Shown here: positions 6,597 to 28,181 of the stretch, piece by piece
Layout: each line of letters starts with the position of its first letter
Position numbering within the stretch: position 1 is the first letter of the stretch
Assembly (NCBI GenBank): GCA_016193565.1
Contig: JACPRY010000012.1
Coordinates: 1-32,656 of the forward strand
Length of the DNA: 32,656 nt
Origin: Armatimonadota bacterium
GTDB taxonomy: Bacteria; Sysuimicrobiota; Sysuimicrobiia; Sysuimicrobiales; Kaftiobacteriaceae
Direction of reading: 5' to 3'
The notes under the pieces: generated by a model
What the model was told of the DNA's origin: nothing
What the model saw: the letters and a program-made list of their open reading frames with translations, nothing else
Databases searched by the model: none
Made by a program: the position numbers and the translations under genes

Positions 6597-6668
6597 GACA
6601 ACGCGAAGACGCGACAACGCGACAACGCGAACCGAGTTGTCCGGTTGTCCCGTTGTCGCGTTGTCCAG
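6597..6668. repeat. palindromic tandem-octamer element: (GACAACGC)x4-5 followed by its inverse (GTTGTCNC)x4
   Basis: Read directly in the sequence. It fills the entire gap between the convergent stop codons at 6589-6591 and 6669-6671. Could fold into a roughly 30-bp imperfect hairpin and act as a bidirectional terminator. Confidence 0.7.
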
Positions 6669-7538
6669 TTACCGTGTTTCTTTCGTCAGGTCGGCCAGGG
6701 GTTGTAGCAGCTTCGTAAATTCCAGCGGGAAGATAAACTTCGTGCTGGCGCCCGCGCCCAGGACTTTGAGCGCCTCGAGGTACTGCAGCGTGAGCGTTTT
6801 GCCGTCGATGTTCTTGGCGACCGCGAAGATCTTGTCGAGGGCGAGCGAGAAGCCCTCGGCGCGCAAGATCGCGGCCTGACGGGCGCCCTCAGCCTCCAGG
6901 ATCGCGGCCTGCTTCGCGCCTTCCGCCACGGTCACCGCCGCCTCGCGCTTTCCGAGCGCCTCTGTCACGACGGCGCGCCGGCTGCGCTCGGCGGACATCT
7001 GCCGGGTCATCGCTTCCTGCACCTCGCGCGGGGGCAGGATCTCGCGGATCTCGACGGTGGTGACCTTGACGCCCCACCGTTCGGTGACCTCGTCCATTTT
7101 CGCCCGCAGGACCTGGTTGATCTGCTCTCGCTTGGCCAGCACGTCGTCCAGGCTAATATCGCCGACCACCGCGCGCAGCGTCGTCGTGGCAATCCCTCTT
7201 GCGGAGCCCGCAAAATCCACCACCTGGATGACAGAAAACTCGGGATTGAAGACTTTGAAATAGATCAGGAAATCGATATTGATCGGCGCATTGTCCTTCG
7301 TGATGCACGTTTGGGAAGGGATCTCCAGGAAGAACTCACGCAGGTCCACCCAGACCGCTTTGTCGATGACCGGCCACAGGAACACGAGTCCGGGCCCCTT
7401 CTTGCCGATCGACTTCCCCAAACGGAACACGACGAGTCGCTGATACTCGCGCACGATCTTGACCGCCGACGAGAGGATGAAGATGCCGACGATGACGGCG
7501 GCGATGAGAAAGGTCAGCTGGGTCAGAAACGAAGGCAT
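6669..7538 (-). CDS. SPFH/band-7 (stomatin/prohibitin-like) membrane protein
   Basis: N-terminal TM helix followed by an SPFH core (KIVREYQRLVVFRLGK..., ...VEIREILPP...), then an Ala/Glu-rich coiled-coil tail. SD GGAGGTG upstream. Confidence 0.85.
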   Translation of the reverse strand: MPSFLTQLTFLIAAVIVGIFILSSAVKIVREYQRLVVFRLGKSIGKKGPGLVFLWPVIDKAVWVDLREFFLEIPSQTCITKDNAPINIDFLIYFKVFNPEFSVIQVVDFAGSARGIATTTLRAVVGDISLDDVLAKREQINQVLRAKMDEVTERWGVKVTTVEIREILPPREVQEAMTRQMSAERSRRAVVTEALGKREAAVTVAEGAKQAAILEAEGARQAAILRAEGFSLALDKIFAVAKNIDGKTLTLQYLEALKVLGAGASTKFIFPLEFTKLLQPLADLTKETR

Positions 7539-7557
7539 ACGAGCACCTCCAGATATA

Positions 7558-7608
7558 CCTTTGGCCCGATACTGATTCGGGTCTGTTTCAGAGAATCCTT
7601 GCCAAAGG
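7558..7608 (-). terminator. nested inverted repeat (CCTTTGGC...GCCAAAGG with inner CCCGA..TCGGG hairpin) between the accC stop and the SPFH gene start
   Basis: Seen in the sequence. Candidate acc-operon terminator or SPFH promoter region. No U-tract. Confidence 0.3.
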
Positions 7609-7619
7609 GCGGGAGAGGG

Positions 7620-8987
7620 TCACCCGGAGGCCTGCTGCAAGGCAGCGAGGTCGATGCGGCGCTGGACGAAGTTCGTGTAGACTTCACCCCGGCGGAAGAA
7701 GGCGTTGTCAAGCACCATCAGATGGAAGGAGATGGTCGTCGGCACGCCGGCGATCTCGAACTCCTGGAGCGCGCGGCGCATCCGCGCGATCGCTTCCGTC
7801 CGCGTCGTTCCCCACGCGATGAGTTTCGCCAGCAGTGAGTCGTAGTGGGGCGGGATCGCGTACCCCGCATACGCATGGGTGTCGACACGGATGCCCGGAC
7901 CGCCCGGCGGGATGAACTGCGTGAGCCGGCCGGGCCCCGGCCGGAAGTCGTGCCGCGGATCTTCGGCGTTGATGCGGCACTCGATCGCATGCCCGCGGAA
8001 CTCGACCTCGCCCTGGTTGACCCTGAGCCGCTCGCCCGCCGCGGTCTCAATCTGCGCCTTCACGATGTCGAGCCCCGTGGTCATCTCCGTGATCGGGTGC
8101 TCGACCTGGATCCGCGTGTTCATCTCCATGAAGTAGAAGTGGCCGTCGCGGTCCACGAGGAACTCCACCGTGCCCGCGCCGGTGTAGTTGATGGAGTGGG
8201 CGGCCTTGACTGCTGCTTTCCCGAGCGCCCCGATGAACCGGTCGCGTACCCCCGGCGGCGGGGCTTCTTCCAGCAGTTTCTGATGGCGGCGCTGGATGGA
8301 GCAATCCCGCGCGCCGAGGTGAATGGTGTTGCCGTGCTTGTCGGCGAGGATCTGGACCTCGATGTGGCGCGGTTCCTCGACGTACTTCTCGATGTAGATC
8401 TCGTTGTTCCCGAACGCGGCCTCCGCCTCCGCCTGCGCGGTCTGGATGGCGCGGCGCAGATCCTCCCGCGTGTGGACGAGCCGCATCCCTCTCCCGCCGC
8501 CCCCTGCCGACGCCTTGACGATGAGCGGGAAGCCGATGTGGCGGGAGATCTCGAGCGCCTCGTTCTCCCCGCGCACCGGGCCTTCGCTGCCCGGAATGAC
8601 CGGCACGCCGGCCTCGCGCATCTGCTCGCGCGCCTGCGATTTGTTGCCCATCGCCGCGATCGCCTGCGGCGAGGGACCGACGAACGTAATCTTCACGTCC
8701 TGGCAAATCTCGGAGAAGTGCGGGTTCTCGGACAGGAACCCGTAGCCGGGATGGATCGCGTCGACGCCAAGCAGCTCGGCCGTGCTCATGATGTTGGGGA
8801 TGTTGAGGTAGGAGTCGGCCGGCGGGGGCGGGCCGATGCAGAACGCTTCATCGGCCATCCGCACATGGAGCGACTGGCGGTCGGCCTCCGAGTAGACGGC
8901 CACGGTGCGAATGCCGAGCTCGCGGCATGCGCGGATCACACGAACCGCGATTTCGCCCCGATTCGCGATCAACAGTTTTCTAAACAT
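7620..8987 (-). CDS. accC: acetyl-CoA carboxylase biotin carboxylase subunit
   Basis: [26 protein letters not shown]..., ATP-grasp domain, 455 aa, strongly conserved. No SD before the ATG. Confidence 0.95.
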
Positions 8988-8995
8988 GGGACGGA

Positions 8996-9049
8996 TCTAT
9001 TGAATCTGTTGAATCTATTGAATCAACGGGTCCAATAGATTCAACAGAT
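8996..9049. repeat. AT-rich palindrome of 9-mer repeats: (TCTNTTGAA)x3 + inverted (TCAAYAGAT)x2
   Basis: Occupies the accB-accC intergenic gap, directly abutting the accC start codon. Much lower GC than the surroundings. Confidence 0.7.
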
Positions 9050-9555
9050 TACCTGTCAGTGACGGTGGGATCGATGAGGAAGAGAGGTTGTCCGAACTCA
9101 ACAGGCGCGGCGTTTTCGACGAGCACCCTGACGACGCGGCCGCGCATCTCGCTCTGAATCTCGTTGAACAGTTTCATCGCTTCGATAATGCACACCGTCT
9201 GGCCGGGCTCCACGACGTCGCCCTCCGACACGAACGGAGGCGCGTCGGGGTTCGGCGCGCGGAAGAAGGTCCCAACCATCGGTGCTGAGATGGGCGTGAG
9301 GTGGTCGACGGCGGCGGCAGGAACCGGCGCAGTCGGCTGCGGGGCCGGCACCGTCATGTGCAGCGTCTGTGTGGGCGCTTCTGTCCCTGGATTCCCCGCC
9401 GTCGCCGTGGCACGCAAGGCGCCCGCCACCTTCTTCACCGAGACCTTGAGCGTGGGCGACTCCACTTCGAGCTCGGCGATGTCGTCCGATTCGCTGAGGA
9501 GCCGGATCACCGCTCGGATCTGGTCGAGGTCAAATTTCTGATCGCTCACATGCAT
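9049..9555 (-). CDS. accB: acetyl-CoA carboxylase biotin carboxyl carrier protein
   Basis: Biotinyl-lysine motif EAMKLFNEI, Pro/Ala linker, C-terminal lipoyl-like fold. A GTG start 6 nt downstream (M-SDQKF...) is better spaced from the GAGGAG SD. Confidence 0.9.
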   Translation of the reverse strand: MHVSDQKFDLDQIRAVIRLLSESDDIAELEVESPTLKVSVKKVAGALRATATAGNPGTEAPTQTLHMTVPAPQPTAPVPAAAVDHLTPISAPMVGTFFRAPNPDAPPFVSEGDVVEPGQTVCIIEAMKLFNEIQSEMRGRVVRVLVENAAPVEFGQPLFLIDPTVTDR

Positions 9556-9563
9556 CTCCTCGA

Positions 9564-11509: not shown

Positions 11510-11515
11510 ATTATA
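11510..11515 (-). promoter_or_regulatory. perfect TATAAT -10 hexamer (minus strand), about 40 nt upstream of the accD start
   Basis: Reverse complement of ATTATA at 11510-11515. Flanks the heptamer array on its left side. Confidence 0.45.
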
Positions 11516-11531
11516 ACGTAGAAATGGCCTG

Positions 11532-11559
11532 CCGTTACCGTTCCCCGTTCCCGGTTCCC
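11532..11559. repeat. tandem heptamer array (CGTTCCC-like x4; GGGAACN on the other strand)
   Basis: ccgttac/cgttccc/cgttccc/ggttccc. Sits centrally between the divergent accD and htrA genes, each side flanked by a perfect TATAAT. Confidence 0.75.
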
Positions 11560-11604: not shown

Positions 11605-12732
11605 ATGAATGCACGCGCCACTCCCGGCGCTATCCTGCTCGTGCTCATTGCCGTCGCCGTCATTGGAGGCGCGCTCGGCAGTTCGGTCCTGCCGCGCGTG
11701 CCGTTCCTCTCCGCGCTGTCCCAGTCCGCACCGTCGGCGGCGTCACCGGCACCTCCGTCCGCGGCCGCACCGAGCGCACCCACGCAGACCACGCCGCGCG
11801 TCGTCGAGCGTGAGGAATCGGTCGTCATCCGCGCCGCGGATCGGGTCCGGCCGGCTGTGGTCAACATCGATACGGTCGCGCAGGTGCAGACGGTCTTCGG
11901 CATCTTCCCACAGGAAGGCGCGGGCTCCGGTGTGATCGTCAGCCCCGACGGCTACATTCTGACGAATAATCATGTGGTCGAGACCGCCCAGCAAATCAAG
12001 GTCACCCTGCTGTCGGGGAAGACCCTCCCGGCGCGGGTCATCGGGACCGACCGGTTCTCCGATCTCGCAGTGGTGAAAGTAGAGATGTCCGGGCTGCCGG
12101 CCGCCACGCTCGGCCGTTCCAGCGCGCTGCGGGTGGGGCAGATGGCGATCGCGATCGGGAACCCGTTCGGTCTCGGGCACACGGTGACGGTGGGGGTCAT
12201 CAGCGCGCTGAACCGCAATATCCGCGTGCCAAACCTCATCATCGAGAACCTGGTTCAGACCGACGCCGCGATCAACCCCGGAAACAGCGGCGGCGCGCTG
12301 GTGGACAGCAGAGGCGAGGTCATCGGCATCAACACCGCGATCGTGCGGGACGCGCAGGGCATCGGTTTCGCCATCCCCATCGACACGGCGCGCGCGATCA
12401 TGGACCAGCTGATCCGGCAGCAGCGGGTCGTGCGTCCCTACGTCGGCGTGGTGTGGGGCGGCGATGTCGATGCGAACATCGCGCGACAATACAACCTGCC
12501 CGTCGACCACGGCGTCATCGTCCGCGACGTCGATCAGAACGGGCCGGCCGCCGCGGCAGGGATCCGGCCCGAAGACATCATCATCTCGCTCGACCGCGCG
12601 CCGGTCGCCAACTGGAACGACTTCATCCGCGCGCTCTTCAACAAGCGCCCCGGCGATGCGGTTCGCATCGAGGTCGTGCGCAACGGAATCCGCAGAACGT
12701 TCACGGTGAGACTCACTGAGCGCACCCAATAA
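11605..12732 (+). CDS. htrA: HtrA/DegP-family serine protease with PDZ domain (S1C)
   Basis: Signal/TM N-terminus, Pro/Ala-rich linker, catalytic triad context (TNNHVV, D, GNSGGAL), C-terminal PDZ. Confidence 0.9.
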   Translation: MNARATPGAILLVLIAVAVIGGALGSSVLPRVPFLSALSQSAPSAASPAPPSAAAPSAPTQTTPRVVEREESVVIRAADRVRPAVVNIDTVAQVQTVFGIFPQEGAGSGVIVSPDGYILTNNHVVETAQQIKVTLLSGKTLPARVIGTDRFSDLAVVKVEMSGLPAATLGRSSALRVGQMAIAIGNPFGLGHTVTVGVISALNRNIRVPNLIIENLVQTDAAINPGNSGGALVDSRGEVIGINTAIVRDAQGIGFAIPIDTARAIMDQLIRQQRVVRPYVGVVWGGDVDANIARQYNLPVDHGVIVRDVDQNGPAAAAGIRPEDIIISLDRAPVANWNDFIRALFNKRPGDAVRIEVVRNGIRRTFTVRLTERTQ

Positions 12733-12735
12733 CGC

Positions 12736-12766
12736 GTTGAAGGTTGAATGTTGAAGGTTGAAGGTT
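12736..12766. repeat. tandem heptamer array (GTTGAAG/GTTGAAT x4)
   Basis: Starts 3 nt after the htrA stop and overlaps the argS start codon (ATG 12748). Confidence 0.7.
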
Positions 12767-14523
12767 ACACATTCGATCGAGCAAAGCGCGAGGCTGTGGA
12801 GGCGGTCCAGGCCGCGCTCGGCGAGCCCGCTGAACTGACCACCGCACTGCCTCCCGCCGAAGTCGACGCCGATCTCGCCATTCCGTGCTTCCCGCTCGCC
12901 GCACAGCGTCGCAAGTCGCCGCCTGAGATCGCCGGCGAGCTGGCCCGATCCGTGCGGCCCGGTCCGCTGCTGGCCGGTGCGCAGGCCGCCGGCGGCTATC
13001 TCAACTTCACGCTGGCACGCCCCGCCTTTGCCGCAGGCGTGATGGCCGATCTCATCCGCGGCGGCGACCGCTACGGCACCAGCGAGGTCGGGGCCGGGCG
13101 CACGGTCGTCATCGATTACTCGGCGCCCAATGTGGCGCGACAGATGTCCGTGGGGCACCTGCGCTCGACGATCATCGGCGCCGCGCTGGTCAACCTGCAC
13201 CGTCACACCGGGTACCGGCCGGTTGGGGACAACCACCTCGGGGACTGGGGAACGCAGTTCGGCACGCTGCTGTACGCGTACGCGCACTGGCTGGACCGGG
13301 AGGCGTACGAGCGGGATCCCATCGCAGAACTGCTGCGGTTATACGTCATGTTTGACGAGGAGGCGCGAAAGGATCCGGCGCTCCGGGAACGAGCGCGCGA
13401 ATGGTCGTTGAAACTGGAGCGCGGCGACCCGGAGGCCCGGACGCTGTGGCAGGAGTTCGTCCGCCACAGCCTGGTGGAGTTCCAGAAGACCTACGACCTG
13501 CTCGAGGTACGGTTCGACCACACGTTGGGCGAAAGCTTCTACGAGGACAAGATGGAGGAAGTGATCTCACAGGCCCGGCAGAACGGGGTGGCCACCACCG
13601 ACGGCGGGGCAGTGATCATCCGTTTGGACGACGCCGGCATCACGACACCACTCATCTTGCAACGCAGCGATGGGGCGACGCTCTATGCGACGCGAGATCT
13701 GGCCACCGCCGTCTACCGCATCCGAACCTTCCGACCGGCAAAGATTCTGTACGTCGTCGGATCAGACCAGCGTCTGCACTTCCGTCAGCTGTTCGAGGCC
13801 TTGAAGAAGCTCGGCCACGGTGACGTGGAGTACGTGCACGTGGACTTCGGGCTGGTCCGGCTGCCCGAGGGGCGCATGAGCACACGGCGCGGACGCGTCG
13901 TGTTTCTCCAGGAGGTGCTCGAGGAAGCGATCGATCGGGCGCGCGCGCTCGTCGACGAGAAGAACCCCGAACTGCCGGAGGCGGAGCGCCGCGAGGTCGC
14001 CCGCATCGTAGGCGTCGGCGCGATCAAGTACGCCGATCTCTCGCAGAACCGGGTGAAGAACATCGTCTTCGATTGGGACCGCATGCTGGCGCTGGACGGC
14101 GACAGCGCCCCGTACCTGCAGTACACGTACGTGCGGGCGCGGGGCATCATCCGGAAGGGCGGGGACGTTGCGCTCGACGTCCCGTTCGACGGCCGGGCCG
14201 CGGCGTCAGCGCAGGAGTGGGCCCTGATCAAACACCTCGCGCGGTTCCCTGACGCCGTCCATGAGGCGACCCGTGCGTACTACCCGCATGTCGTGGCCAA
14301 CCATCTCTTCCAGCTCGCCCAGCTCTTCCACGCCTTCTACCAGGAGATCCCGGTGCTGCAGGCCGAGGACAACGGTCTTCGCTGGAGCCGCCAGCAGCTG
14401 GTCTGGGGCGTAGCCACCGTCATGCGCACCGGCCTCGGCCTCCTGGGCATTCGCGTCCCGGAGCGCATGTATTCCCGGTTCCCGGTTCCCGGAATCGGTC
14501 ATGGAGCAAAATGCCGGGTATAA
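12748..14523 (+). CDS. argS: arginine--tRNA ligase
   Basis: Class I aaRS with ArgRS add-1 N-domain, HIGH-region variant SAPNVARQMSVGHLRS, DALR anticodon-binding domain. Canonical C-terminus ...ERM is followed by a 17-aa tail translated from the heptamer array. Confidence 0.9.
   Translation: MLKVEGYTFDRAKREAVEAVQAALGEPAELTTALPPAEVDADLAIPCFPLAAQRRKSPPEIAGELARSVRPGPLLAGAQAAGGYLNFTLARPAFAAGVMADLIRGGDRYGTSEVGAGRTVVIDYSAPNVARQMSVGHLRSTIIGAALVNLHRHTGYRPVGDNHLGDWGTQFGTLLYAYAHWLDREAYERDPIAELLRLYVMFDEEARKDPALRERAREWSLKLERGDPEARTLWQEFVRHSLVEFQKTYDLLEVRFDHTLGESFYEDKMEEVISQARQNGVATTDGGAVIIRLDDAGITTPLILQRSDGATLYATRDLATAVYRIRTFRPAKILYVVGSDQRLHFRQLFEALKKLGHGDVEYVHVDFGLVRLPEGRMSTRRGRVVFLQEVLEEAIDRARALVDEKNPELPEAERREVARIVGVGAIKYADLSQNRVKNIVFDWDRMLALDGDSAPYLQYTYVRARGIIRKGGDVALDVPFDGRAAASAQEWALIKHLARFPDAVHEATRAYYPHVVANHLFQLAQLFHAFYQEIPVLQAEDNGLRWSRQQLVWGVATVMRTGLGLLGIRVPERMYSRFPVPGIGHGAKCRV
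14472..14492. repeat. tandem heptamer array (TTCCCGG x3; CCGGGAA on the other strand)
   Basis: Inside the last 17 codons of argS. Confidence 0.75.
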
Positions 14524-14524
14524 T
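14519..14524 (+). promoter_or_regulatory. perfect TATAAT -10 hexamer (contains the argS stop TAA), 26 nt after the array
   Basis: Would give an approximately 195-nt leader for the SLH-protein gene at 14727. Confidence 0.4.
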
Positions 14525-14726
14525 ACGTAGGTGGAGGGTGTACCGCCTGGGGTCCCGGCAGGAATTGCTGCCTGAGGAGCGAAACCCTCCGACGATTCAG
14601 TTCAAAGCCTCGGAGTTTCGGCGCCCGACGGAGCAGCCTGAGTCACACACCAAACCAGGCACCGGTTTTCGGCAAGGTGCCCGCAACCACCGCCGGTAAT
14701 CCCAAACATCTGATGAACAGAGGTTT

Positions 14727-16001
14727 ATGATGAATCTCTTTGCACGAACAGGTTGGGGTGCCCGCGCGCTCATGCTCGCGGTCGCTTTGATGCTGGCCGC
14801 AGCGCCCGCGTGGGCCGAGATCTTCATCGACATTCAGGGCACCCCCGCGCAGCGGGCGATCGAACGACTGACCGCGAAAGGTCTCTTCCCGCTCCCTGGC
14901 GTGCGTGGAGCGCCGGACAAGTTCAACCCTACTGGGACAGTGACCCGGGCGGACTTCGCGTTCCTTCTCGTGCAGGCCATCGGGGTCGACACGGCAGGGA
15001 TCGTGCTGCCGAAGTTCAAGGACGCGGCTGACATCCCGCAGGTGCAGCAGGGTGCGGTTGCGGCGATCACGAGCCTCGGGAGCGTTTCACCCCAGAAAGT
15101 GGAACTGAAGCGCGGTGGCCTGACCTATACGCTGGCCACGAACAAGGCCGTGTATGGACCGTCGGACTTCGTCGTCATTACACTTACCATTCTCAATACC
15201 ACCGCGAAGGATCTGAAGTTCGAGCACGTCAACTCGCAGCTATACGATTTCATCGTCCGGAGCGCGGAGGGCCAGGAGATCGCGAAGTGGTCGCTTGGCC
15301 GAGCGTTCCTCCCCATGGAGGCGCCGCTCACGCTGACCGCGGGGAAGAAGTTTGAGTGGAACACGCAATGGAAGCAGCTCGATCAGAGCGATGACCCCGT
15401 CGACCCTGGCCGTTACGAGATTATCGGCGTCCATACTACGAAGGCCAACCCGACGTCGCTCTCCCTGTTCTTCAACAAGGGCGTGATGCCGGCGCTGTCA
15501 GACAACACCTTTCGCCCGAAGCAGGAGATGACGCGACTAGACCTGGCCACGGTGACGGCCCGGTCGATCGGTCTGGCCGATGCGGCGCCCTCATCGCTGA
15601 ACGTGACCGACGCTGACAGCATCCCCGCGACTGCTCGCGGCACAGTGGCTGCGGCGCTGGAAAAAGGCATTGTCGCGCCTGTGGGGAACCGGGAGTTCCG
15701 ACCTAATCAGAAGGCCACGCGGAGCGAACTGGCGCAGGCACTGGACGTGTTGATGACTACCCTGAACCGATACAGCTTCAACAGAGGTATGCTTAAGGAT
15801 CCCATCACCGGGAACCCTCCGCAGATCTCTATCGAAGACGAACGCAAGGCGCTGCGCGTATTCCGAGTGGCGCGGTCTCATGCAGTCTACCGGAACGATC
15901 GTCTCGCCGAGTTGCGCGACCTGCGGCCCGGCGACTCGCTCCGTTTCCTGACCAGGGGAGACGTGGGCGATGTTGCCTACATCGAGGCCACAGGGCGCTG
16001 A
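14727..16001 (+). CDS. secreted SLH-domain protein with central BsuPI-like/Ig-like domain
   Basis: Signal peptide; SLH motifs (FxDIxGxxAQRAIERLTAKGL; FRPKQEMTRLDLAT; FRPNQKATRSELAQAL); middle region resembles the BsuPI protease-inhibitor fold (called from memory). Confidence 0.7.
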   Translation: MMNLFARTGWGARALMLAVALMLAAAPAWAEIFIDIQGTPAQRAIERLTAKGLFPLPGVRGAPDKFNPTGTVTRADFAFLLVQAIGVDTAGIVLPKFKDAADIPQVQQGAVAAITSLGSVSPQKVELKRGGLTYTLATNKAVYGPSDFVVITLTILNTTAKDLKFEHVNSQLYDFIVRSAEGQEIAKWSLGRAFLPMEAPLTLTAGKKFEWNTQWKQLDQSDDPVDPGRYEIIGVHTTKANPTSLSLFFNKGVMPALSDNTFRPKQEMTRLDLATVTARSIGLADAAPSSLNVTDADSIPATARGTVAAALEKGIVAPVGNREFRPNQKATRSELAQALDVLMTTLNRYSFNRGMLKDPITGNPPQISIEDERKALRVFRVARSHAVYRNDRLAELRDLRPGDSLRFLTRGDVGDVAYIEATGR

Positions 16002-18414: not shown

Positions 18415-19473
18415 ATGGGGTCAAAGGCGAGGCTGTTCGGCATCGGCATGCTTTCTGGGATGCTGATGCTTCCGGCACACATCCCTCAGCCGTTGAGTCC
18501 TGGACCCTCCGCAACCCCCTTCCTCCAGGCCGTTCAGACCCAAGCTGCAGTTTCCCAGATCTTCACGACGCTCTTCCACCTCGCTCCGCCTCGGCCTGAG
18601 ACGGCCAGCGCGACGAGTCAGCCTGCGCCATCGCCCACCACCGTCGTCGTCAAGGAAGGGCAGTCGGTCTGGGACATCGCGAACGCCTACGGCGTGTCGG
18701 TGGACTCAATCATCGCCGCGAACGACCTCCGGAATGCGGACCTGATCAAGCCCGGACTGCGCCTCCTAATTCCGAGGGCCGGCGCCGCTCTTCCCGCCCA
18801 GAAGCCGGCCGTCCAGAAGCCCGCGGTCCAGAAGGCCCCGTCGAAGGCCGCATCCCCGTCGAAGACCCAGCCGGCACGGCAACCCCGCCCCGAGTGGATC
18901 GTCGTGCGGCAGGGGCAGACGCTCTCAGAGATTGCCGAAGAACACGGGACATCGGTCAGCGCGTTCGTGAGGGCGAACGGGCTGCGGAGTGCCGAGCTCA
19001 TTCGCGAGGGGCAGCGTCTGGCGATCCCAGGACGGCAAGCCGCCTCGAGACGTCTAACGATCGCCTCGCCGGTTCCGGTGTCCCGGACCCAGGCCGTGGT
19101 CGCGCGGGTGAGCGGGTTCCTGTGGCCGGCACGCGGTGTGCTGACCTCAAGGTTCGGCTGGCGGTGGCGGCAGCATCACGACGGGATTGACATCGCCGCT
19201 CCCCGAGGCGCCCCGATCCACGCCGCGAAGGCCGGGCGCGTCATCTTTGCCGGCTGGTATTACGGCTATGGGCGGGCCATCATCATCGACCACGGCGGCG
19301 GGCTCACGACCCTCTATGGACATGCATCGAAGCTGCTGGCCAGCAACGGTCAGGCGGTGCAGGCGGGCGAACTCATCGCCCGCGTCGGATGCACCGGCCA
19401 CTGCTCCGGCTCGCACCTCCACTTCGAGATCCGCGTTAACGGTAAGGCAGTCAATCCCCTGAAATACCTCTAG
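18415..19473 (+). CDS. LysM (x2) - M23 family metallopeptidase (murein DD-endopeptidase-like)
   Basis: Signal peptide, two LysM domains (VVKEGQSVWDIA...; VVRQGQTLSEIA...), PAVQK x3 linker, M23 motifs HxxxD...HLHFE. Start uncertain (ATG 18415 abuts the SD; ATG 18445 is an alternative). Confidence 0.8.
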   Translation: MGSKARLFGIGMLSGMLMLPAHIPQPLSPGPSATPFLQAVQTQAAVSQIFTTLFHLAPPRPETASATSQPAPSPTTVVVKEGQSVWDIANAYGVSVDSIIAANDLRNADLIKPGLRLLIPRAGAALPAQKPAVQKPAVQKAPSKAASPSKTQPARQPRPEWIVVRQGQTLSEIAEEHGTSVSAFVRANGLRSAELIREGQRLAIPGRQAASRRLTIASPVPVSRTQAVVARVSGFLWPARGVLTSRFGWRWRQHHDGIDIAAPRGAPIHAAKAGRVIFAGWYYGYGRAIIIDHGGGLTTLYGHASKLLASNGQAVQAGELIARVGCTGHCSGSHLHFEIRVNGKAVNPLKYL

Positions 19474-19478
19474 CTGAC

Positions 19479-19506
19479 GGGAACGGGGAACGGCGAACGG
19501 GGAACG
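19479..19506. repeat. tandem heptamer array (GGGAACG x4, one GCGAACG)
   Basis: Begins 6 nt after the M23 stop. Confidence 0.75.
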
Positions 19507-19538
19507 GTACAAGCCTACCCTGGCCGGAGTGACTGTGC

Positions 19539-19544
19539 TATAAT
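19539..19544 (+). promoter_or_regulatory. perfect TATAAT with extended -10 (TGc) for rpmE
   Basis: tgtgcTATAAT. GGAGGGAG SD and ATG follow 30 nt downstream. Confidence 0.55.
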
Positions 19545-19573
19545 TCCCGCGGTCATTTCCCGGAGGGAGTTCC

Positions 19574-19777
19574 ATGAAGAAGGGCATTCATCCCGAGTAC
19601 AAGCAGACGACCGTGACATGTGCCTGCGGCGAAACGTTTGTGACGGGCTCCACGAAACAGAATATCCGCGTCGAGATCTGCTCGAAATGCCATCCGTTTT
19701 ACACGGGGCAGAGAAAGTACATCGATGCCGAAGGGCGCGTGCAGCGGTTTGCCAAGAAGTATGGCCTCAAGGTCTAA
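19574..19777 (+). CDS. rpmE: 50S ribosomal protein L31 (type A, Zn-ribbon)
   Basis: MKKGIHPEY...CACG...[10 protein letters not shown], 67 aa. Confidence 0.95.
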
Positions 19778-19865: not shown

Positions 19866-20483
19866 ATGAACGACCTTCAAGGTCGGATTGAGGTCATCGT
19901 CGGCAGTATGTTCAGCGGGAAAAGCGAAGAGCTCATTCGGCGCGTGCGCCGCGCCCAGATTGCTCGCCTGCGGGTTCAGGTATTCAAGCCGGCGATCGAC
20001 AGCCGGTCCGGCCGCCAGCAGATCGCCTCCCATAACGGCGCGCGCATTGAAGCCATTCCCATCGCCCACAGCCGGGAGCTCTCGGAACACCTTGACCCCG
20101 ACGCCACCGTGGTGGCGATCGATGAGGTGCAGTTTCTCGACGACGGCATCGTCGGGATCGCGCAGCACCTTGCCGATCGCGGGATTCGCGTGATCGCCGC
20201 TGGCCTCGACATGGATTTCCGCGGCGAGCCGTTTGGCCCGGTGCCGCAGCTGCTGGCGCAGGCAGAGGCGGTCGACAAACTCCAGGCGATCTGCATGGTT
20301 TGCGGCGTGCCGGCCAGCCGGACGCAGCGGATCATCAACGGCCAGCCCGCCCACTATACCGATCCCGTAATCTTCGTTGGCGCTCAAGAAGTGTATGAAG
20401 CACGATGTCGGGAGCATCACGTGGTTCCGGGAAAGCCATCGACCGGGAACTGGGAACGGGGAACGGGGAACCGTCAGAGATGA
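19866..20483 (+). CDS. tdk: thymidine kinase
   Basis: P-loop [11 protein letters not shown], Zn-ribbon CMVCG...CREHH. The last 20 codons are translated from the heptamer array. The stop overlaps the next ATG (ATGA). Confidence 0.9.
20445..20472. repeat. tandem heptamer array (GGGAACN x4) inside the tdk 3' end, with an inverted partner TTCCCGG at 20488-20494
   Basis: gggaact/gggaacg/gggaacg/gggaacc. Four G3+ tracts with 3-4 nt loops. Confidence 0.75.
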
Positions 20484-22481: not shown

Positions 22482-23426
22482 CCCAATCCCATCACGATAC
22501 GCGAAGCCTATCTGTACGGTTGTGAGCACCTCATCGCTTCGGGCGTACCGGAGCCGGCCATCGAGGCCGAGGTCCTGCTGAGGCACGTCCTGGGCTATGA
22601 TCGGGCGGCGCTGTATACTCGCTGGGACTCTCCGATTGATCCTCCCACGGCCGGGCGCTACCAGCGCCTTTTGGAGATCCGGAGCACGGGGCGGCCCGTT
22701 CCCTACATCATCGGTACGCGGGAGTTTATGAGCCTCCCGTTCGCAGTGGACGAACGGGTGATGATCCCGAGACCCGAAACAGAGATTCTGGTGGAATATC
22801 TGGTGAAGAAGTTCTCAACTACGGAAACGAGGAAACGAGGAAACGAGGGAACGAGTCAAGGCGACGAACGACCAACGACCAACGACGAACATCAGTTGGT
22901 GCTGGTTGATGTCGGGACGGGCAGCGGCTGCATCGCGGTGAGCCTCGCACACTACCTGCCGCAAGCCCGCGTCTATGCGACCGACATCTCGGCCGCGGCG
23001 CTCGAGATCGCCGCGCGAAACGCTCAGCATCACAACGTGGCAGATCGGGTGGTCCTGCTTGAGGGCGATCTCCTGTCCCCCCTTCCGCACCACCTGGACG
23101 GACAGGTGCAGGCCGTAGCCAGTAACCCGCCCTATGTCCCGGTATCACAGGCGCTGGACCTGGCGAGGGAAATTCGCGATTTCGAGCCTGCGGAAGCCGT
23201 GTTTTCGCCGGGCGAAGGAACGGTGATGCACGGCAGGCTGATCGAAGAAGCGCCTCGCTGGCTCTGCGCCGGAGGGATGCTCGCGATGGAGATCGCTGCG
23301 GGCCAGGCTGAGCCTGTGCGCAATCGAGTGGCTCAGGACAACCGGTATGATCGTGTTTGCTCCCTCTCTGATCTTGCTGGAATTGAGCGCGTGGTGGTCG
23401 CATGGCGACGACACGCGACAGGGTAG
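22482..23426 (+). CDS. prmC: release-factor glutamine N5-methyltransferase (PrmC/HemK); start codon uncertain
   Basis: The frame is open from immediately after the prfA stop and encodes the PrmC N-domain (...IREAYLYGCEHL...VLLRHVLGYDRAALY...), then VLVDVGTGSGCIAV and NPPY. There is no ATG/GTG/TTG before the track's internal TTG at 22671. Contains a 20-codon in-frame repeat insertion. Confidence 0.75.
   Translation, partial: PNPITIREAYLYGCEHLIASGVPEPAIEAEVLLRHVLGYDRAALYTRWDSPIDPPTAGRYQRLLEIRSTGRPVPYIIGTREFMSLPFAVDERVMIPRPETEILVEYLVKKFSTTETRKRGNEGTSQGDERPTTNDEHQLVLVDVGTGSGCIAVSLAHYLPQARVYATDISAAALEIAARNAQHHNVADRVVLLEGDLLSPLPHHLDGQVQAVASNPPYVPVSQALDLAREIRDFEPAEAVFSPGEGTVMHGRLIEEAPRWLCAGGMLAMEIAAGQAEPVRNRVAQDNRYDRVCSLSDLAGIERVVVAWRRHATG
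22823..22890. repeat. compound array inside prmC: (GGAAACGA)x4 + GTCAAGGC + (GACNAAC)x4
   Basis: Encodes TETRKRGNEGTSQGDERPTTNDEH between the PrmC N-domain and the methyltransferase GTG motif. Length keeps the reading frame. Confidence 0.75.
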
Positions 23427-24625: not shown

Positions 24626-25253
24626 AGGCAAGGTGTTTGTCTTCGACCACCCGCTGATCCTGCACAAGGTCACGATCCTGCGAGACACGCGCACCGGGCA
24701 CAAAGAGTTCCGCGAACTGGTCGAGGAACTCGCGATGTTGATGGCTTTCGAGGTCACCCGGTCGCATCCGACACGCGAGGTCGAGGTCGAAACGCCGCTG
24801 GCCACGACGAAGGGGCGGAGCATCGCGGGGCAGGAGATCGCCGTCGTCCCGATCCTGCGCGCGGGGCTGGCGATGGAAAGCGGCATCACCCGTCTGATCC
24901 CGACGGCCCGTGTCGGGCACGTCGGCATCTACCGCGATCCAGAGAGCCTCGAACCCGTGACCTACTACTCCAAACTCCCCACCGACATCGCGGAACGCGA
25001 GGTGATGATCGTCGATCCCATGCTTGCAACCGGCGGCTCGATCGTGGCCTGCATCGACACGCTGAAACAGCGAGGCTGCAAGACGATCAAGGTCGTGGCG
25101 ATCATCTCGGCGCCCGAAGGGATCAAGAAGGTGCATGATGCACATCCGGACGTTGAGATCTACACTGCAGCTATCGATAGCCACCTCAACGACCACGGCT
25201 ACATTGTGCCGGGGCTCGGCGACGCGGGCGACAGACTATTTGGGACGAAATAG
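24618..25253 (+). CDS. upp: uracil phosphoribosyltransferase
   Basis: [18 protein letters not shown]..., PRPP-binding [14 protein letters not shown] start overlapping the rpiB 3' end, AGGGGG SD. Confidence 0.9.
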
Positions 25254-25293
25254 CCCAGTCGGGCTATAGACTCAACTGACCAGGACGAGTTCA

Positions 25294-25899
25294 ATGACGA
25301 TGGATGCACAATGGGACGAGATAAGTCTGGACGTCATGCGAGTCCTGGATGGTCAGAGCGGCGTTGGAGAGAGTCCAGAAAGCTACAATGGGCGATGCCG
25401 CTGCATATGGTGCGGCGAATACAAGCAGCAAGAGGAGTTCGTTCGGAGTCCGCGCTATGCGTCCGGATACTCTTCAAGATGCAAAGTGTGCCACGCGTCT
25501 TACATGCGACGCCGGCTGGCAGAGTTGAAGGCAGGTATCTGGAAGCCAACAGGAATGCGACGCGGTGTGCCAAATGCGACGCGCATTCCCACCGAGCCGG
25601 ACATTGCCTGGGTGGCCGGTTTCCTTGAAGGCGAAGGAAATTTCCGGCGCTCATATAGTTCACATGATCGCTACGGCACTGAGCAGGTGTCGGCCGGGCA
25701 GGTGAATCCAGAGCCACCGTACAAGCTTCAGGAGCTTTTTGGAGGTGCAATCTACAAAAAGAAGCGCAGCAAGTGGGGCATGAACGACATCCTCTACTGG
25801 CAGGTCACTGGCGAACGGGCGCGGGTGCTGATGAGGGCAGTAGAACCCCTGATGTCTGCGCGTCGACGCGAACAGATCAAAAAGGCGTCATCCCGATGA
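25294..25899 (+). CDS. LAGLIDADG-family homing-endonuclease-like protein with N-terminal 4-Cys Zn-ribbon
   Basis: Single LAGLIDADG-type motif IAWVAGFLEGEGNF followed by a HEG-like ...LQELFGGAIYKKKRSKW...ILYWQVTG... segment. N-terminus has CRCIWCG...CKVCH. Low GC3. Stop overlaps the next ATG (ATGA). Confidence 0.55.
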   Translation: MTMDAQWDEISLDVMRVLDGQSGVGESPESYNGRCRCIWCGEYKQQEEFVRSPRYASGYSSRCKVCHASYMRRRLAELKAGIWKPTGMRRGVPNATRIPTEPDIAWVAGFLEGEGNFRRSYSSHDRYGTEQVSAGQVNPEPPYKLQELFGGAIYKKKRSKWGMNDILYWQVTGERARVLMRAVEPLMSARRREQIKKASSR

Positions 25900-26357
25900 G
25901 CAAGCCATCCTGGGATGCGTATTTCATGCGGATGGCACACCTTGCCTCAACTCGCTCAACGTGCCTACGCCGCAAAGTCGGAGCGGTGATCGTCAAGGAT
26001 CGCATGGTTCTGACGACAGGGTACAATGACACACCGCGAGGTGTTCGCAACTGTGGAGAGGGCGGATGCGCTCGTTGTGGGGGGGATGCGCCCTCCGGAA
26101 CCAGCCATGACACCTGTCTGTGCATTCACGCTGAGATGAACTGTGTCATTCAAGCAGCCTACCATGGTGTTTCAGTAGCAGGCGGAACAGTGTACTGCAC
26201 GTATCTCCCGTGCTTGACGTGTGCGAAGATTCTTCTGAACGTCGGCATCAAGCGCATTGTTTTCGAAGGCCAGTATCCTGACCTGCTGTCATTGGAACTC
26301 CTCACGAATGCTGACGTGGAACTGGTCCGCTACGCGGAAGAGGGGGTCCCCGGCTAG
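25896..26357 (+). CDS. dCMP (deoxycytidylate) deaminase, ComEB-like
   Basis: CMP/dCMP deaminase zinc-binding motifs HAEMNC...PCLTCAK, 153 aa, low GC3 like the upstream ORF. Confidence 0.85.
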   Translation: MSKPSWDAYFMRMAHLASTRSTCLRRKVGAVIVKDRMVLTTGYNDTPRGVRNCGEGGCARCGGDAPSGTSHDTCLCIHAEMNCVIQAAYHGVSVAGGTVYCTYLPCLTCAKILLNVGIKRIVFEGQYPDLLSLELLTNADVELVRYAEEGVPG

Positions 26358-26364
26358 GCGTCGG

Positions 26365-26532
26365 GAGCCCTTCTGTCTGACCTACGCGAAGATGATTGTC
26401 AACGTGGGCATCCGGCGGATGATCTTCGCCGGCGACTACCCCGACCCGCTGGCGGTCGAGATGCTGTCGGATGCCGGTGTGACGATTGAACGACTCTCGC
26501 TGGAACCACTTGTTCCTGGGGAACCGAGGTAG
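26365..26532 (+). pseudogene. 3' remnant of a native (host-composition) dCMP deaminase gene
   Basis: Encodes REPFCLTYAKMIVNVGIRRMIFAGDYPDPLAVEMLSDAGVTIERL..., homologous to the C-terminus of the intact gene (PCLTCAKILLNVGIKRIVFEGQYPDLLSLELLTNADVELVRY) but with high GC3 and no 5' part. Confidence 0.6.
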
Positions 26533-26540
26533 CATTCGCG

Positions 26541-26572
26541 CGTTCCCCCGTTCCCGCGTTCCTTCGTTCCCG
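26541..26572. repeat. tandem octamer array (CGTTCCCN x4)
   Basis: cgttcccc/cgttcccg/cgttcctt/cgttcccg. Begins 9 nt after the remnant's stop. Confidence 0.75.
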
Positions 26573-26581
26573 CTGTTGTGT

Positions 26582-26587
26582 TATAAT
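26582..26587 (+). promoter_or_regulatory. perfect TATAAT -10 hexamer for rplY
   Basis: 9 nt after the array, 51 nt before the rplY ATG. Confidence 0.5.
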
Positions 26588-26600
26588 CGGCGTCGGTCTT

Positions 26601-26624
26601 GGCCCTGGCGCGTGGGCCTTTTTT
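26601..26624 (+). promoter_or_regulatory. terminator-like hairpin GGCCC-tggcgcgt-GGGCC + TTTTTT in the rplY leader (candidate attenuator)
   Basis: GC stem plus T6, located between the TATAAT and the rplY start codon (14 nt before the ATG). Confidence 0.4.
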
Positions 26625-26638
26625 CGTGGGGGGTTGAG

Positions 26639-27367
26639 ATGGAACGAGTGAGTCTGGAAGCGAAGCGCCGCGATGGCACGGGAACGAGCAAGGTGCGCAA
26701 GCTCCGCCTGCAGGGGCTCGTCCCGGCGGTCGTGTACGGCCGTGGCCGCGAGCCGGTGCCCGTGGCCGTCGACGGGAAGTCGCTGCGCGCATCGCTGCAC
26801 ACGCATGCCGGCCTGAACGTCCTCATCGACCTGTCCATCGCCGACGGCAGTCGCTCGACGGAAACCGTGATGGTCAGGGAAGTGCAGCGCGGGATGTTCA
26901 GGCGCGAGATCATTCACGTGGATTTCCACACGATCGACCTGACGGAGACACTCGAAGCGCACGTGCGGTTGGTCTTCACCGGCCAGGCGAAGGGCGTCGT
27001 CGACGACGGGGGCGTGTTGGAGATCCACCTCCGCGAAGTCGTTGTCGAGTGTCTGCCGGCACAGATTCCCGAGTCGATTGAGATCGACATCTCAGCGCTG
27101 GGCGTGGGGGACTCGCTGCACGCCAGCGATATCAAGATGCCCGCTGAGGTGACGATGGTCACGTCGGCCGAGGAGGCGATCGCCACAGTCGTCATGCCCA
27201 AGGAGATCGAAGAGGTGGCGCCTGCGGCTGCGGCGGTGCCTGAAGCGGCGGCAGAAGCCGCGGCCCCCGAGGCAGCGGCGCCGGCAGAGGGCAAGCCGGC
27301 CGAGAAGGCTGGTGAGCCTGAGAAGCCCGAGAAACCTGAGAGACCCGAGAAGAAGGAGAAGGGGTAG
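26639..27367 (+). CDS. rplY: 50S ribosomal protein L25 / general stress protein Ctc
   Basis: MERVSLEAKRRDGTGTSKVRKLR...VVYG... L25/Ctc fold. Ala/Pro/Glu/Lys-rich C-terminal tail (PEKPEKPERPEKKEKG). Confidence 0.9.
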   Translation: MERVSLEAKRRDGTGTSKVRKLRLQGLVPAVVYGRGREPVPVAVDGKSLRASLHTHAGLNVLIDLSIADGSRSTETVMVREVQRGMFRREIIHVDFHTIDLTETLEAHVRLVFTGQAKGVVDDGGVLEIHLREVVVECLPAQIPESIEIDISALGVGDSLHASDIKMPAEVTMVTSAEEAIATVVMPKEIEEVAPAAAAVPEAAAEAAAPEAAAPAEGKPAEKAGEPEKPEKPERPEKKEKG

Positions 27368-27424
27368 CAGTCGAACCCCAATCGGCAGTCAGCAGCCGGC
27401 AGTCAGTAGTTTCATAGGGAAAGT

Positions 27425-27465
27425 CGCAGAAGGCAGGTGACGGGAAACTGTCGCTGCCTTCTGCG
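27425..27465 (+). terminator. perfect 12-bp stem-loop (CGCAGAAGGCAG / CTGCCTTCTGCG, 17-nt loop) after rplY
   Basis: 58 nt after the rplY stop. No U-tract. Confidence 0.4.
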
Positions 27466-27518
27466 TGTCTGGAGGCTCTTGACTGGCGACTGCAGGCTGC
27501 CGACGGCTGACTGGTGCG

Positions 27519-28109
27519 ATGAAACTCATCGTCGGGATGGGCAACCCAGGGCGCCGGTACCGGGGAACGCGCCACAACGTGGGCTGGGAGGTGCTCGAGT
27601 GTCTGGCCCGCCGCCACGACGTGACGATCGATGACGACACGGGCTGGGCTGAGGTCGGACGGGGAACGATCGGTCCCCACCGCGTCGTGCTGGCGCGGCC
27701 GGTGACCTACGTGAACGCGAGCGGCATGGCGGTCCAGGATCTCAAGCGCCGCCACCGCGTACAGGTTGAGGACATCTTCCTGATCGTGGACGATCTCGAT
27801 CTGCCCCTCGGCCGGATGCGGCTGCGGCCGAAGGGAAGCGCCGGCGGGCACAACGGACTGAGATCCGTGATCGAGGCGTTGGGCAGCGCCGAATTTCCGC
27901 GGCTGCGCATCGGGATCGGACGGCCACCGGCGGGGGTCGATGCCGCGGACCACGTCCTCACACGGTTCACCGACGAGGAGCGGCAGGGGCTGGAGGCCGC
28001 CCTGGTCCGCGCGGCGGAAGCCCTCGAGGTCGCGATTACTGAGGGCCTCGATGTCGCGATGAACCGGTTTAACGCGAAAACGAACCTCGGAAACGAGGAA
28101 ACAAGGTAA
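27519..28109 (+). CDS. pth: peptidyl-tRNA hydrolase
   Basis: MKLIVGMGNPG..YRGTRHNVG... The last about 8 codons and the stop lie inside the repeat palindrome. Confidence 0.9.
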   Translation: MKLIVGMGNPGRRYRGTRHNVGWEVLECLARRHDVTIDDDTGWAEVGRGTIGPHRVVLARPVTYVNASGMAVQDLKRRHRVQVEDIFLIVDDLDLPLGRMRLRPKGSAGGHNGLRSVIEALGSAEFPRLRIGIGRPPAGVDAADHVLTRFTDEERQGLEAALVRAAEALEVAITEGLDVAMNRFNAKTNLGNEETR

Positions 28110-28167
28110 CGAGGAAACGAGGCATGGCAGTTACCGGTTTCCTAGTTTCCTCGTTTCCTGGTTTCCG
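28089..28167. repeat. palindromic octamer array: (GGAAACGA-like)x4, 15-nt spacer, (NGTTTCCT)x4
   Basis: ggaaacga/ggaaacaa/ggtaacga/ggaaacga ... ggtttcct/agtttcct/cgtttcct/ggtttccg. Spans the pth stop. Confidence 0.75.
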
Positions 28168-28175
28168 CCGTTGAG

Positions 28176-28181
28176 TATAAT
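28176..28181 (+). promoter_or_regulatory. perfect TATAAT -10 hexamer for hppA
   Basis: 9 nt after the palindrome. AAGGAG SD and ATG follow 72 nt downstream. Confidence 0.5.

Follow-up and report, generated by a model that had tools for sequence, protein, structure and literature searches.

Positions 1 to 32,656 of contig JACPRY010000012.1 (assembly GCA_016193565.1, an Armatimonadota bacterium), analysed here as a whole and called the window, form a housekeeping stretch of chromosome with a G+C content of 64% whose gene junctions carry arrays of short tandem repeats and, in several cases, a perfect TATAAT hexamer. The genes run from GH57, pgi, a malK-like ATPase gene and a band-7 gene through accC, accB, accA and accD on the minus strand to htrA, argS, an SLH/BsuPI protein gene, transaldolase, rho, an M23 peptidase gene and rpmE (19574–19777); these are followed by tdk, a DUF1385 gene, prfA, prmC, sua5, rpiB, upp, a deaminase gene and the L25 gene (start 26639), and last by pth and the genes for an H+-pyrophosphatase (H+-PPase) and a permease. 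No tRNA genes were found in the window, and the covariance models of Rfam 15 gave no match at gathering thresholds anywhere in it.

A typical array consists of 3–5 copies of a 7–9-nt unit; 7-mers are as frequent as 8-mers, and there are 9-mers as well. Arrays were detected with Tandem Repeats Finder (TRF), partner arms with an inverted-repeat search, and the pair between the L25 gene and pth by reading the spacer. Related or comparison loci and contigs are designated by L-numbers. Among them, L168 is a contig of an NCBI metagenome-assembled genome labelled Armatimonadota, with the same gene order as the window from accD to the pyrophosphatase gene and about 70% protein identity (70% for the DUF1385 protein). 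A further set of 146 unrelated bacterial loci amounts to 2.0 Mb. For the single genome, counts are those of the 32.7-kb window. Twelve non-overlapping arrays of period 7 or 8 occur there, against a mean of 0.43 and a maximum of 3 in 200 dinucleotide-preserving shuffles. TRF recovered all ten arrays listed in an earlier sequence-only reading of this DNA (6597, 8996, 11532, 12736, 14472, 19479, 20445, 22823, 26541 and 28089), and six arrays or arms come in addition to that list (5441, 22862, the partner arms at 6636, 9033–9050 and 28137, and the pair at 27384–27409/27481–27514). The arrays are the following.

5441–5474, plus strand: CGGGAGCG, 4.2 copies (TRF); C-terminal tail of Pgi, with the stop codon at 5475–5477, 14 nt before the next gene
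6596–6670, no strand assigned: inverted pair of CGACAACG, 4.5 copies (6596–6631), and GTTGTCCC, 4.4 copies (6636–6670) (TRF and inverted-repeat search)
8995–9050, minus strand: inverted 9-mer pair of ATCTATTGA, 3.3 copies (8995), and its partner (9033–9050); in the spacer from the accB stop (9049) to the accC start (8987)
11532–11559, plus strand: CCGTTCC, 3–4 copies (start 11532/11538), the reverse complement of GGGAACG; between two divergent −10 boxes
12736–12766, plus strand: GTTGAAG, 4.4 copies; 4 nt past the htrA stop, holding the argS ATG (12748) and a GAAGG motif resembling a ribosome-binding site
14472–14492, plus strand: TTCCCGG, 3.0 copies; exactly at the position of the argS stop codon of relatives
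19479–19507, plus strand: GGGAACG, 4.1 copies; 6 nt past the M23 peptidase stop
20445–20471, plus strand: GGGAACG, 3.9 copies; C-terminal tail of thymidine kinase, the tdk stop overlapping the DUF1385 start (ATGA, 20480–20483)
22823–22890, plus strand: GGAAACGA, 4.1 copies (22823), and CGACCAA, 4.1 copies (22862); in frame, in the loop of PrmC that joins the ETE..LV helix to the GTGSG motif
26541–26571, plus strand: CGTTCCCC, 3.9 copies; 10 nt past the stop of a deaminase 3' remnant
27384–27409 and 27481–27514, plus strand: degenerate inverted heptamer pair (GGCAGTC/AGCAGCC... and GACTGGC/GACTGCA...); L25–pth spacer, no TATAAT
28089–28166, plus strand: inverted pair of GGAAACGA, 4.2 copies (28089–28122), and GTTTCCTA, 3.8 copies (28137–28166) (TRF and inverted-repeat search)

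A GGAAC/GAAAC/GTTCC core had been proposed as common to all units; in the form GG(G)AA(A)C/GTT(T)CC it is real in 8 of about 16 arrays. By position, the arrays are tied to gene 3' ends and not to promoters. Five begin 0–15 nt past a stop codon (6596, 9050 on the minus strand, 12736, 19479 and 26541), and the pair at 6596–6670 fills the spacer where the convergent malK-like and band-7 genes end, with stops at 6591 and 6669, respectively. Others have been read through, such that the C-terminal tails of Pgi, ArgS, Tdk and Pth are translated arrays. The Pfam match of Pgi ends at residue 330 of 342, with the array tail beyond it; the Tdk tail differs wholly between the window and L081; and the pth stop is supplied by a variant unit, GGTAACGA, of the 28089–28122 array. 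ArgS ends ...PERM* in every relative; in the window PERM is followed by TAT instead of a stop, which extends the protein by 17 residues through the TTCCCGG array to a TAA inside the TATAAT at 14519. The PrmC loop measures 31 residues in the window, 17 in L085 (four copies of GGTAACGC) and 7 in L082. The earlier observation that arrays are tolerated inside coding sequence thus holds for this in-frame surface loop and for the C-terminal tails, and the argS ATG lies inside the array at 12736. The arrays lie in the only DNA of this compact genome that tolerates such change: the few tens of bases past stop codons, disposable C-terminal tails and one surface loop. Annotators should take note: with such arrays, stop codons disappear, proteins acquire tails and loops, and a start codon can come from the repeat itself.

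The conserved N-terminal domain of PrmC (22482–22670) is encoded directly after the prfA stop with no in-frame ATG, GTG or TTG before 22671; a non-canonical start codon or translational coupling to prfA may account for this.

We consider it likely that the arrays are lineage-specific long simple-sequence repeats driven by slippage, that the TATAAT boxes are independent of them, and that the paired arrays would be overgrown terminator stems that work as 3'-end hairpins.

Conserved promoters beside the arrays

Seven perfect TATAATs lie in the window at the positions that the sequence-only reading had given, against 0.80 expected and a maximum of 4 in 100 shuffles.

11510–11515, minus strand: accD −10; orthologous TATAAT in L088, L090, L092, L095, L120 and the array-free L168
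11573–11578, plus strand: htrA −10, followed by the Shine-Dalgarno sequence AAGGAGG and the ATG at 11605; orthologues in L088, L090, L092 and L120, and in L095 without an array
14519–14524, plus strand: −10 of a conserved leader of about 200 nt and the SLH/BsuPI gene, holding the TAA that ends the extended argS reading frame; orthologues in L082, L090, L092, L094–96, L099, L120, L146 and L168
19539–19544, plus strand: rpmE extended −10 (TGC-TATAAT); orthologues in L081, L082, L085, L089, L168, L170, L171 and L172
21381–21386, plus strand: prfA box, 10 nt before the prfA ATG, without an array and holding the DUF1385 stop codon; 9–10 nt before the ATG in the window, L081, L082, L085, L089, L170, L171 and L172; conserved in L168 at an uncertain start distance (the first ATG is 11 nt away and the called start 30 nt)
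26582–26587, plus strand: L25 (ctc) extended −10 (TGT-TATAAT), followed by a leader hairpin with T6 (26601–26624) and the ATG at 26639; orthologues in L172, L173 and the array-free L082 (16989) and L168 (16510)
28176–28181, plus strand: −10 of a promoter that drives an Oxidored_molyb gene in relatives, the gene being deleted in the window, ahead of the H+-PPase gene; orthologues in L172, L173 and the array-free L082 (20149)

Orthologous TATAATs were thus found in relatives for all seven boxes, and for six of the seven in relatives that are array-free (L082 and L168, in neither of which an intergenic array of 7–8-nt units was found). L168 keeps the box at the accD, SLH-leader, rpmE, prfA and L25 sites, and L082 at the SLH-leader, rpmE, prfA, L25 and oxidoreductase sites. 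The prfA box stands without an array in every genome compared, and seven array loci of the window have no TATAAT. Judged by this conservation, the TATAATs are strong and conserved −10 elements of the sigma-70 type that belong to the promoter of the following gene; they are older than the arrays and independent of them. A consensus promoter scan recognized no −35 element at any of the seven, two of which have an extended −10; the lineage appears to depend on a near-perfect −10 box without a −35 element, and this dependence would account for the excess of perfect hexamers.

The sequence-only reading had coupled the two features and named a promoter/UP-like or activator-binding module among its candidates. 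Spelled out, such a module would have the arrays as UP-like elements or as sites for a lineage-specific activator or repressor by which GGRAWC/GWTYCC units are read together with TATAAT. Five arrays do end shortly upstream of a TATAAT, at gaps of 13, 26, 31, 8–10 and 9 nt. Absence of a recognizable −35 at seven promoters would leave room for another recruiter of RNA polymerase, the GGRAWC unit family is specific to the lineage, and five lineages retain GTT(T)CCC-type arrays just before the htrA −10 box (these occur at the accD/htrA site in L088, L090, L092 and L120 and are absent from L095 and L168). From Nostoc, a preprint reports changed reporter activity on deletion of a heptamer repeat (10.1101/2022.06.06.494920). 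Such a module is nonetheless quite unlikely here. An upstream element would be expected at a fixed position, and the arrays are anchored to the upstream stop at no fixed distance from the −10 (8–31 nt); their strand varies, and the units at orthologous promoters are unrelated. Perfect TATAATs are kept without arrays in L082, L168, L095, L171/L172 and L173, and the seven array loci without a promoter include coding tails and a protein loop. An array next to a perfect TATAAT is not a new promoter architecture, and a false lead is removed.

What remains of the association is weak. By hand count, 13 junctions of the window are at least 60 nt long, 8 of them with arrays and 5 with TATAAT, and all 5 fall within those 8 (hypergeometric p ~0.04). 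Such a residue is to be expected if arrays and TATAATs each stand at the borders of transcription units, the stop codon coming first and the −10 last; the apparent coupling is positional, with stop codon, array or arrays, −10 box and start codon packed into spacers of 60–150 nt.

Some of these promoters have further features. The short distance from box to start codon suggests that the prfA transcript is leaderless or near-leaderless, and argS shows the arrangement TATAAT-N6-ATG in L088, L090, L092 and L120. The leader of about 200 nt at 14525–14726 contains a motif that is conserved in seven relatives, CCGGCAGG(A/G)ATT with a short hairpin and then G(A/C)GAA after it; the leader's consensus fold after the TATAAT at 14519 has only 7 pairs, and 14480–14760 gave no Rfam match even in a permissive search (E <= 1). 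It is possibly an undescribed cis-regulatory RNA. Between the −10 and the start of the L25 gene (26588–26638), a GC hairpin with T6, similar in L082, L168 and L173 and replaced in L172, looks like an attenuator or a ribosomal-protein leader.

Repeat families of the same kind

The sequence-only reading had not recognized the arrays as a described element. The same kind of array has been described, however, in Xanthomonas and Nostoc (PMC4692102) and as heptamer-rich long simple sequence repeats (Mrazek 2007, as reported in PMC4679880). Xanthomonas genomes carry about 185 GGGAATC arrays each, most of four units and 89–93% intergenic, lying on average 28 nt from the upstream open reading frame (ORF) and 160 nt from the next; 70–75 cases, about 40%, are convergent inverted pairs, the same genes are flanked in two species by arrays that vary in length and sequence, and the neighbours are housekeeping genes, with no function found (Rehm et al. 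2015, PMC4692102). The GGGGA(C/T)T arrays of Nostoc PCC 7120 are covered by the same study (PMC4692102). The arrays of the window and its relatives resemble both sets in their G-rich, GGGA-type 7-nt units in about four copies, in an intergenic position nearer the end of the upstream ORF, in convergent inverted pairs, and in the occupation of the same junction in relatives with varying length and sequence next to housekeeping genes. They differ in that 8-mers are as common as 7-mers and 9-mers occur, in the dominance of GGRAWC plus 1–3 nt, in the many arrays with unrelated units that lack G3 tracts, in the several arrays that are read as protein tails and the one in a protein loop, and in their host, an uncultured Armatimonadota-like lineage. 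Measured against the Xanthomonas/Nostoc type, 3'-end proximity with an intergenic bias and inverted pairs are both present, and a general capacity for G-quadruplexes (at least four G3 tracts) is absent.

Cyanobacterial STRR (short tandemly repeated repetitive) heptamers were reportedly described by Mazel et al. in 1990, a study cited in PMC4692102. Like them, the present arrays are tandem heptanucleotides with few dominant units per genome and many intergenic loci; STRRs belong to heterocystous cyanobacteria and have AT-richer units and often longer arrays, whereas phylum and units differ here. The window's arrays can be regarded as one kind of element with STRRs, with the GGGAATC repeats found in Xanthomonas and with the GGGGAYT repeats found in Nostoc. 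A statistical counterpart is the class of long simple sequence repeats with units of 5–11 nt (LSSR5-11), among which heptamers are over-represented; slippage was proposed as their origin, with 7 nt as the contact length of the polymerase (Mrazek 2007, as reported in PMC4679880 and PMC4692102). The arrays match this class, as far as those reports portray it, in being longer than chance, in their heptamer excess, in their occurrence in free-living bacteria with larger genomes and in pointing to a general slippage tendency rather than a specific function; tandem units of 5–11 nt beyond composition are what the window contains (12 against 0.43). As portrayed there the class is purely statistical, unlike the present arrays with their inverted-pair architecture, stop-codon anchoring and lineage-specific unit family. 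A peak at heptamers is seen outside the lineage too: in the 146 unrelated loci, 135 arrays have period 7, 42 period 6 and 34 period 8. Marine Beggiatoaceae carry TAACTGA repeats of 2–6 copies at many intergenic loci, mostly just upstream of start codons (MacGregor 2015, PMC4679880). They share with the window's arrays one dominant heptamer at many intergenic loci, and differ in lying in one orientation with only one inverted set, in contrast to arrays that follow stops and are often inverted pairs. A literature search for tandem repeats in Armatimonadetes found nothing relevant.

Among the matches listed, L025, L029, L035, L045, L072, L026 and L041 have dense heptamer arrays around prfA with many inverted pairs; these contigs are labelled Saganbacteria, Anaerolineae, Caldilineaceae and Acidobacteriota.

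In Xanthomonas and Nostoc the repeats form G-quadruplexes in vitro (PMC4692102), and GGGAACG in four copies is a G3N4 repeat whose preferred copy number equals the minimum for a quadruplex. It is very unlikely, all the same, that the arrays work here as G-quadruplex or i-motif elements, that is, as G3 arrays folding into four-stranded regulatory structures. Only the array at 20445 fits four tracts of the form G3+N1-7, with none on the minus strand, and there is no G3 tract in GGAAACGA, GTTGAAG, CGACAACG, ATCTATTGA, CGACCAA or the GGTCGTA of relatives; because many arrays have units without G3 tracts, quadruplex potential is exceptional in this lineage. Rehm et al. found no regulatory effect (PMC4692102). 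As a general explanation the G-quadruplex was rejected, with 1 of about 16 arrays matching the canonical motif.

Turnover of arrays and inverted pairs

The reading of the arrays as slippage-driven repeats is carried by the comparison of orthologous intergenic regions that the sequence-only reading had proposed, which revealed presence/absence and copy-number variation between near-identical strains. The junctions remain the same and the units change. Between the M23 gene and rpmE the window repeats GGGAACG, L081 AGGGCCT and L085 GGGATTA. At the htrA–argS junction six lineages have six different units, the arrays of the relatives being inverted pairs. L081 is 90–93.5% identical to the window at the nucleotide level in the flanks, yet the array block between tdk and the DUF1385 gene is unalignable, L081 having an unrelated 9-mer hairpin pair there and L082 nothing. 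9-mers related to those between accB and accC are present in L090 and L120 (ATCTACCCA and ATCTACTCA), probably at the same junction.

Closer pairs show the steps. At 99.5% identity, L090 and L091 are set apart by a single 8-nt unit, CGCGGGAA, and the near-identical L092 and L093 by 7 nt inside a heptamer array. Upstream of rpmE, L090 (13744–13945) and L091 (13750–13915) have an unalignable block of about 160 nt from the M23 stop to the rpmE start, in which the units differ and the architecture of arm, TGGTACAAT promoter and arm is shared. The nearest relatives, L171/L172, about 97% (97.7%) identical to the window, have a single CGAACGG where the window has four copies of GGGAACG, with the rpmE TATAAT kept, and they have no prmC arrays (25 nt in L172 against 91 nt in the window). 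The array at 26541 is present in L172 with 1-nt indels; in the window a single complementary unit, GGGGAACC, lies within 26518–26529, near that array, and L173 has at this site an intact pair, (GGGAACG)2-loop-(CGTTCCC)3-4-TATAAT. The degenerate pair at 27384–27514 is conserved in L172. At the pth end, the window and L172 carry about 95 nt of paired arrays, with arms and loop diverged in L172, where L173 has none and its pth stop lies inside the TATAAT. Length variation of the kind that marks long simple sequence repeats is thus present as one-unit indels at 99.5% identity and as presence or absence at about 97%. On these alignments, change by whole units, a single-unit seed and gain or loss in place are what slipped-strand replication errors leave behind.

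Minor changes in gene content, too, fall exactly on array-bearing junctions. An Oxidored_molyb gene lies between pth and the H+-PPase gene in L172, L173 and L082; in the window it is deleted, with its promoter and the first ~45 nt remaining (28182–28253, compared with 9775–10347 of L172 and 3662–4231 of L173). The tdk gene is missing from L171, L172, L085 and L170. The dCMP-deaminase gene of the window is complete (stop 26357), and 26380–26531 is an out-of-frame remnant of a second deaminase C-terminus that resembles the L082 orthologue more closely than does the C-terminus of the intact gene, which suggests that most of the deaminase gene was replaced by a diverged allele.

The sequence-only reading had also proposed footprints of a small mobile element. 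Paired arrays do resemble the inverted terminal repeats of foldback elements, compared with L173 the pth end carries an additional hairpin of about 95 nt, one unit is found at several loci, and the GGAAACGA x4 array of prmC, new since L172, resembles the pth-end array (about 36 of 40 positions). Non-autonomous elements of a foldback type or resembling miniature inverted-repeat transposable elements (MITEs), or arrays copied between loci, remain highly improbable as a general account: the loci share neither loop nor flank, there is no target-site duplication and no transposase domain in the window, units are locus-specific in the 32.7 kb of genome examined and differ at the same junction in relatives, and the single-unit seed CGAACGG in L172 favours growth in place.

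The contingency repeats of Haemophilus and Neisseria are likewise tandem short units that change copy number by slippage; unlike the present arrays, their units are 1–5 nt long, lie in promoter spacers or at the 5' coding ends of surface or restriction-modification genes, and switch expression. That the window's arrays are contingency loci, selected as hypermutable on/off switches of their neighbours, is scarcely credible despite unit-length differences between near-identical strains and units of 7–8 nt that would shift the frame if coding, as the neighbours are housekeeping genes (argS, tdk, pth, prmC, rpmE, L25 and the acc genes), the arrays follow the functional part of the ORF or lie upstream of the −10, where a unit change leaves protein frame and −10/−35 spacing intact, an in-frame prmC array would be harmful if it switched, and the same conclusion was reached for Xanthomonas (PMC4692102). 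Of the earlier suggestion of slippage-prone contingency repeats, slippage is borne out by the one-unit differences; the contingency part is not supported, no array lying between promoter elements or early in an ORF. By the features that define each class, as seen in the 32.7 kb, REP, MITE, contingency-locus and UP-element readings were all rejected.

An inverted partner lies within 150 nt of 18 of 36 arrays of the lineage and of none of the controls (separate direct copy, reversed unit), and in other phyla the figures are 42 of 194 arrays against 2 controls. About half of the arrays are inverted pairs that fold into interrupted hairpins of 25–35 bp. In the window, pairs fold at −28 to −47 kcal/mol with z scores of −4.5 to −5.4. 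The arms of the pair at 6596–6670 are 33 nt long and 82% complementary (−45.6 kcal/mol on the plus strand and −47.2 on the minus strand; z −4.75 and −4.53), those at 8995–9050 are 18 nt long and 100% complementary (z −5.39), and the pair at 28089–28166 folds at −41.1 kcal/mol (z −5.02). The degenerate pair at 27384–27514, which flanks an inner hairpin (27426–27464), folds at −80.9 kcal/mol in the sense and −63.3 in the antisense direction. Single arrays fold no better than shuffles (19470–19565, z −0.66; 26505–26580, z −0.15; 22815–22895, z +0.67), and 12730–12790 is a borderline case (z −2.0, a stability reached or exceeded by 9 of 200 shuffles).

Most often the stop codon is followed by a purine-rich arm, then the loop, a pyrimidine-rich arm and TATAAT (L088, L090, L092, L120, L173 and 28089–28181 of the window), and because the pyrimidine-rich arm lies next to the TATAAT, the arrays adjacent to the box in the window are of the GTTCC type. 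The rpmE promoter stands between two arms, with a degenerate partner, TTCCCGCGGTCATTTCCCGG, at 19544–19563 beside the −10. Downstream of rpmE, the window and L081 have in common a GC-rich stem of 13 bp; L085, L170 and L089 have this core stem too, made longer at the base by heptamer units added to each arm (z −4.7 to −6.8). The site of the window's array between the M23 gene and the rpmE −10 is taken in L168 by a hairpin with a T-tract. Paired arrays stand, on these comparisons, at sites where relatives free of arrays have ordinary terminator hairpins. Across the pairs, the sense folds contain 60 G-U pairs and the antisense folds 28, and in 9 of 13 pairs the sense strand folds more stably, a hint that the structure is formed by the sense RNA.

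Paired arrays could accordingly be viewed as overgrown terminator stems, in which part of the stem has been repeated on each arm near the foot of the hairpin. Their probable role is that of hairpins at the 3' ends of transcription units, where they would work as terminators or RNA stabilizers between adjacent units; unpaired arrays would be decayed halves or neutral passengers. REP and BIME elements, the extragenic palindromes of enterobacteria, form hairpins at 3' ends and belong to a conserved family spread by RAYT transposases. They are a likely working analogy for the paired arrays, as 3'-end and intra-operon hairpins with a part in RNA 3'-end protection and termination, and differ from them in that the present units are locus-specific, with no palindrome common to the loci, no RAYT seen and no transposase domain in the window.

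Several observations weigh against the terminator interpretation. Few paired arrays precede a T-tract (about 3 of 11 pairs by eye have a T-run after them), and a consensus terminator scan flags none; because of this scarcity of T-runs and calls, we infer the terminator role rather than report it as a result. The pair between accB and accC lies inside a likely operon. The G-U excess could stem from transcription-associated C-to-T mutation, and its counts are not independent, the units being copies of one another. The high occupancy of shared junctions across several lineages may be due to selection, or simply to arrays arising often.

The GGRAWC unit family

A further difficulty for the slippage reading lies in the units themselves, as purely local slippage explains neither the dominance of GGRAWC (plus 1–3 nt) nor its recurrence at loci gained since the split from L172. 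This family makes up about half of the arrays and dominates both the window and the related contigs; triple GGRAWC arrays number 4 in the window and 3–5 per related contig, and none occurs in the 2.0 Mb of unrelated bacterial loci. GGGAACG in four copies stands at two new loci of the window, and the likeness of the new GGAAACGA array of prmC to that at the pth end has been mentioned above. The same puzzle of one dominant unit has been noted for the repeats of Xanthomonas, Nostoc and Beggiatoaceae. Copying between arrays, an intrinsic expansion bias of the sequence and a binding protein are candidate explanations.

It is tempting to speculate, though the proposal is unlikely to prove correct, that a lineage-specific process seeds and homogenizes GGRAWC (plus 1–3 nt) at gene ends, and that the resulting inverted arrays form a distinct, fast-evolving class of terminator or insulator hairpins. 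Seeding might then proceed by template switching or gene conversion between arrays, or through a protein that binds or nicks the motif. If so, terminator or insulator hairpins of this class would have replaced canonical intrinsic terminators in part of the Armatimonadota, and the same process would underlie the heptamer families of Xanthomonas, Nostoc and Beggiatoaceae.

The heptamer and octamer repeats known from Xanthomonas and cyanobacteria are extended by these findings to an Armatimonadota-like lineage and, incidentally, to contigs of Acidobacteriota, Chloroflexota and Saganbacteria. The comparative series provides clear snapshots of the birth and death of arrays, from array-free junctions through a single-unit seed and four units to inverted pairs, and a second series leads from a canonical terminator stem to one lengthened by reiterated units. 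Together they could make testable why units of 7 nt are favoured and why one unit family dominates a genome.

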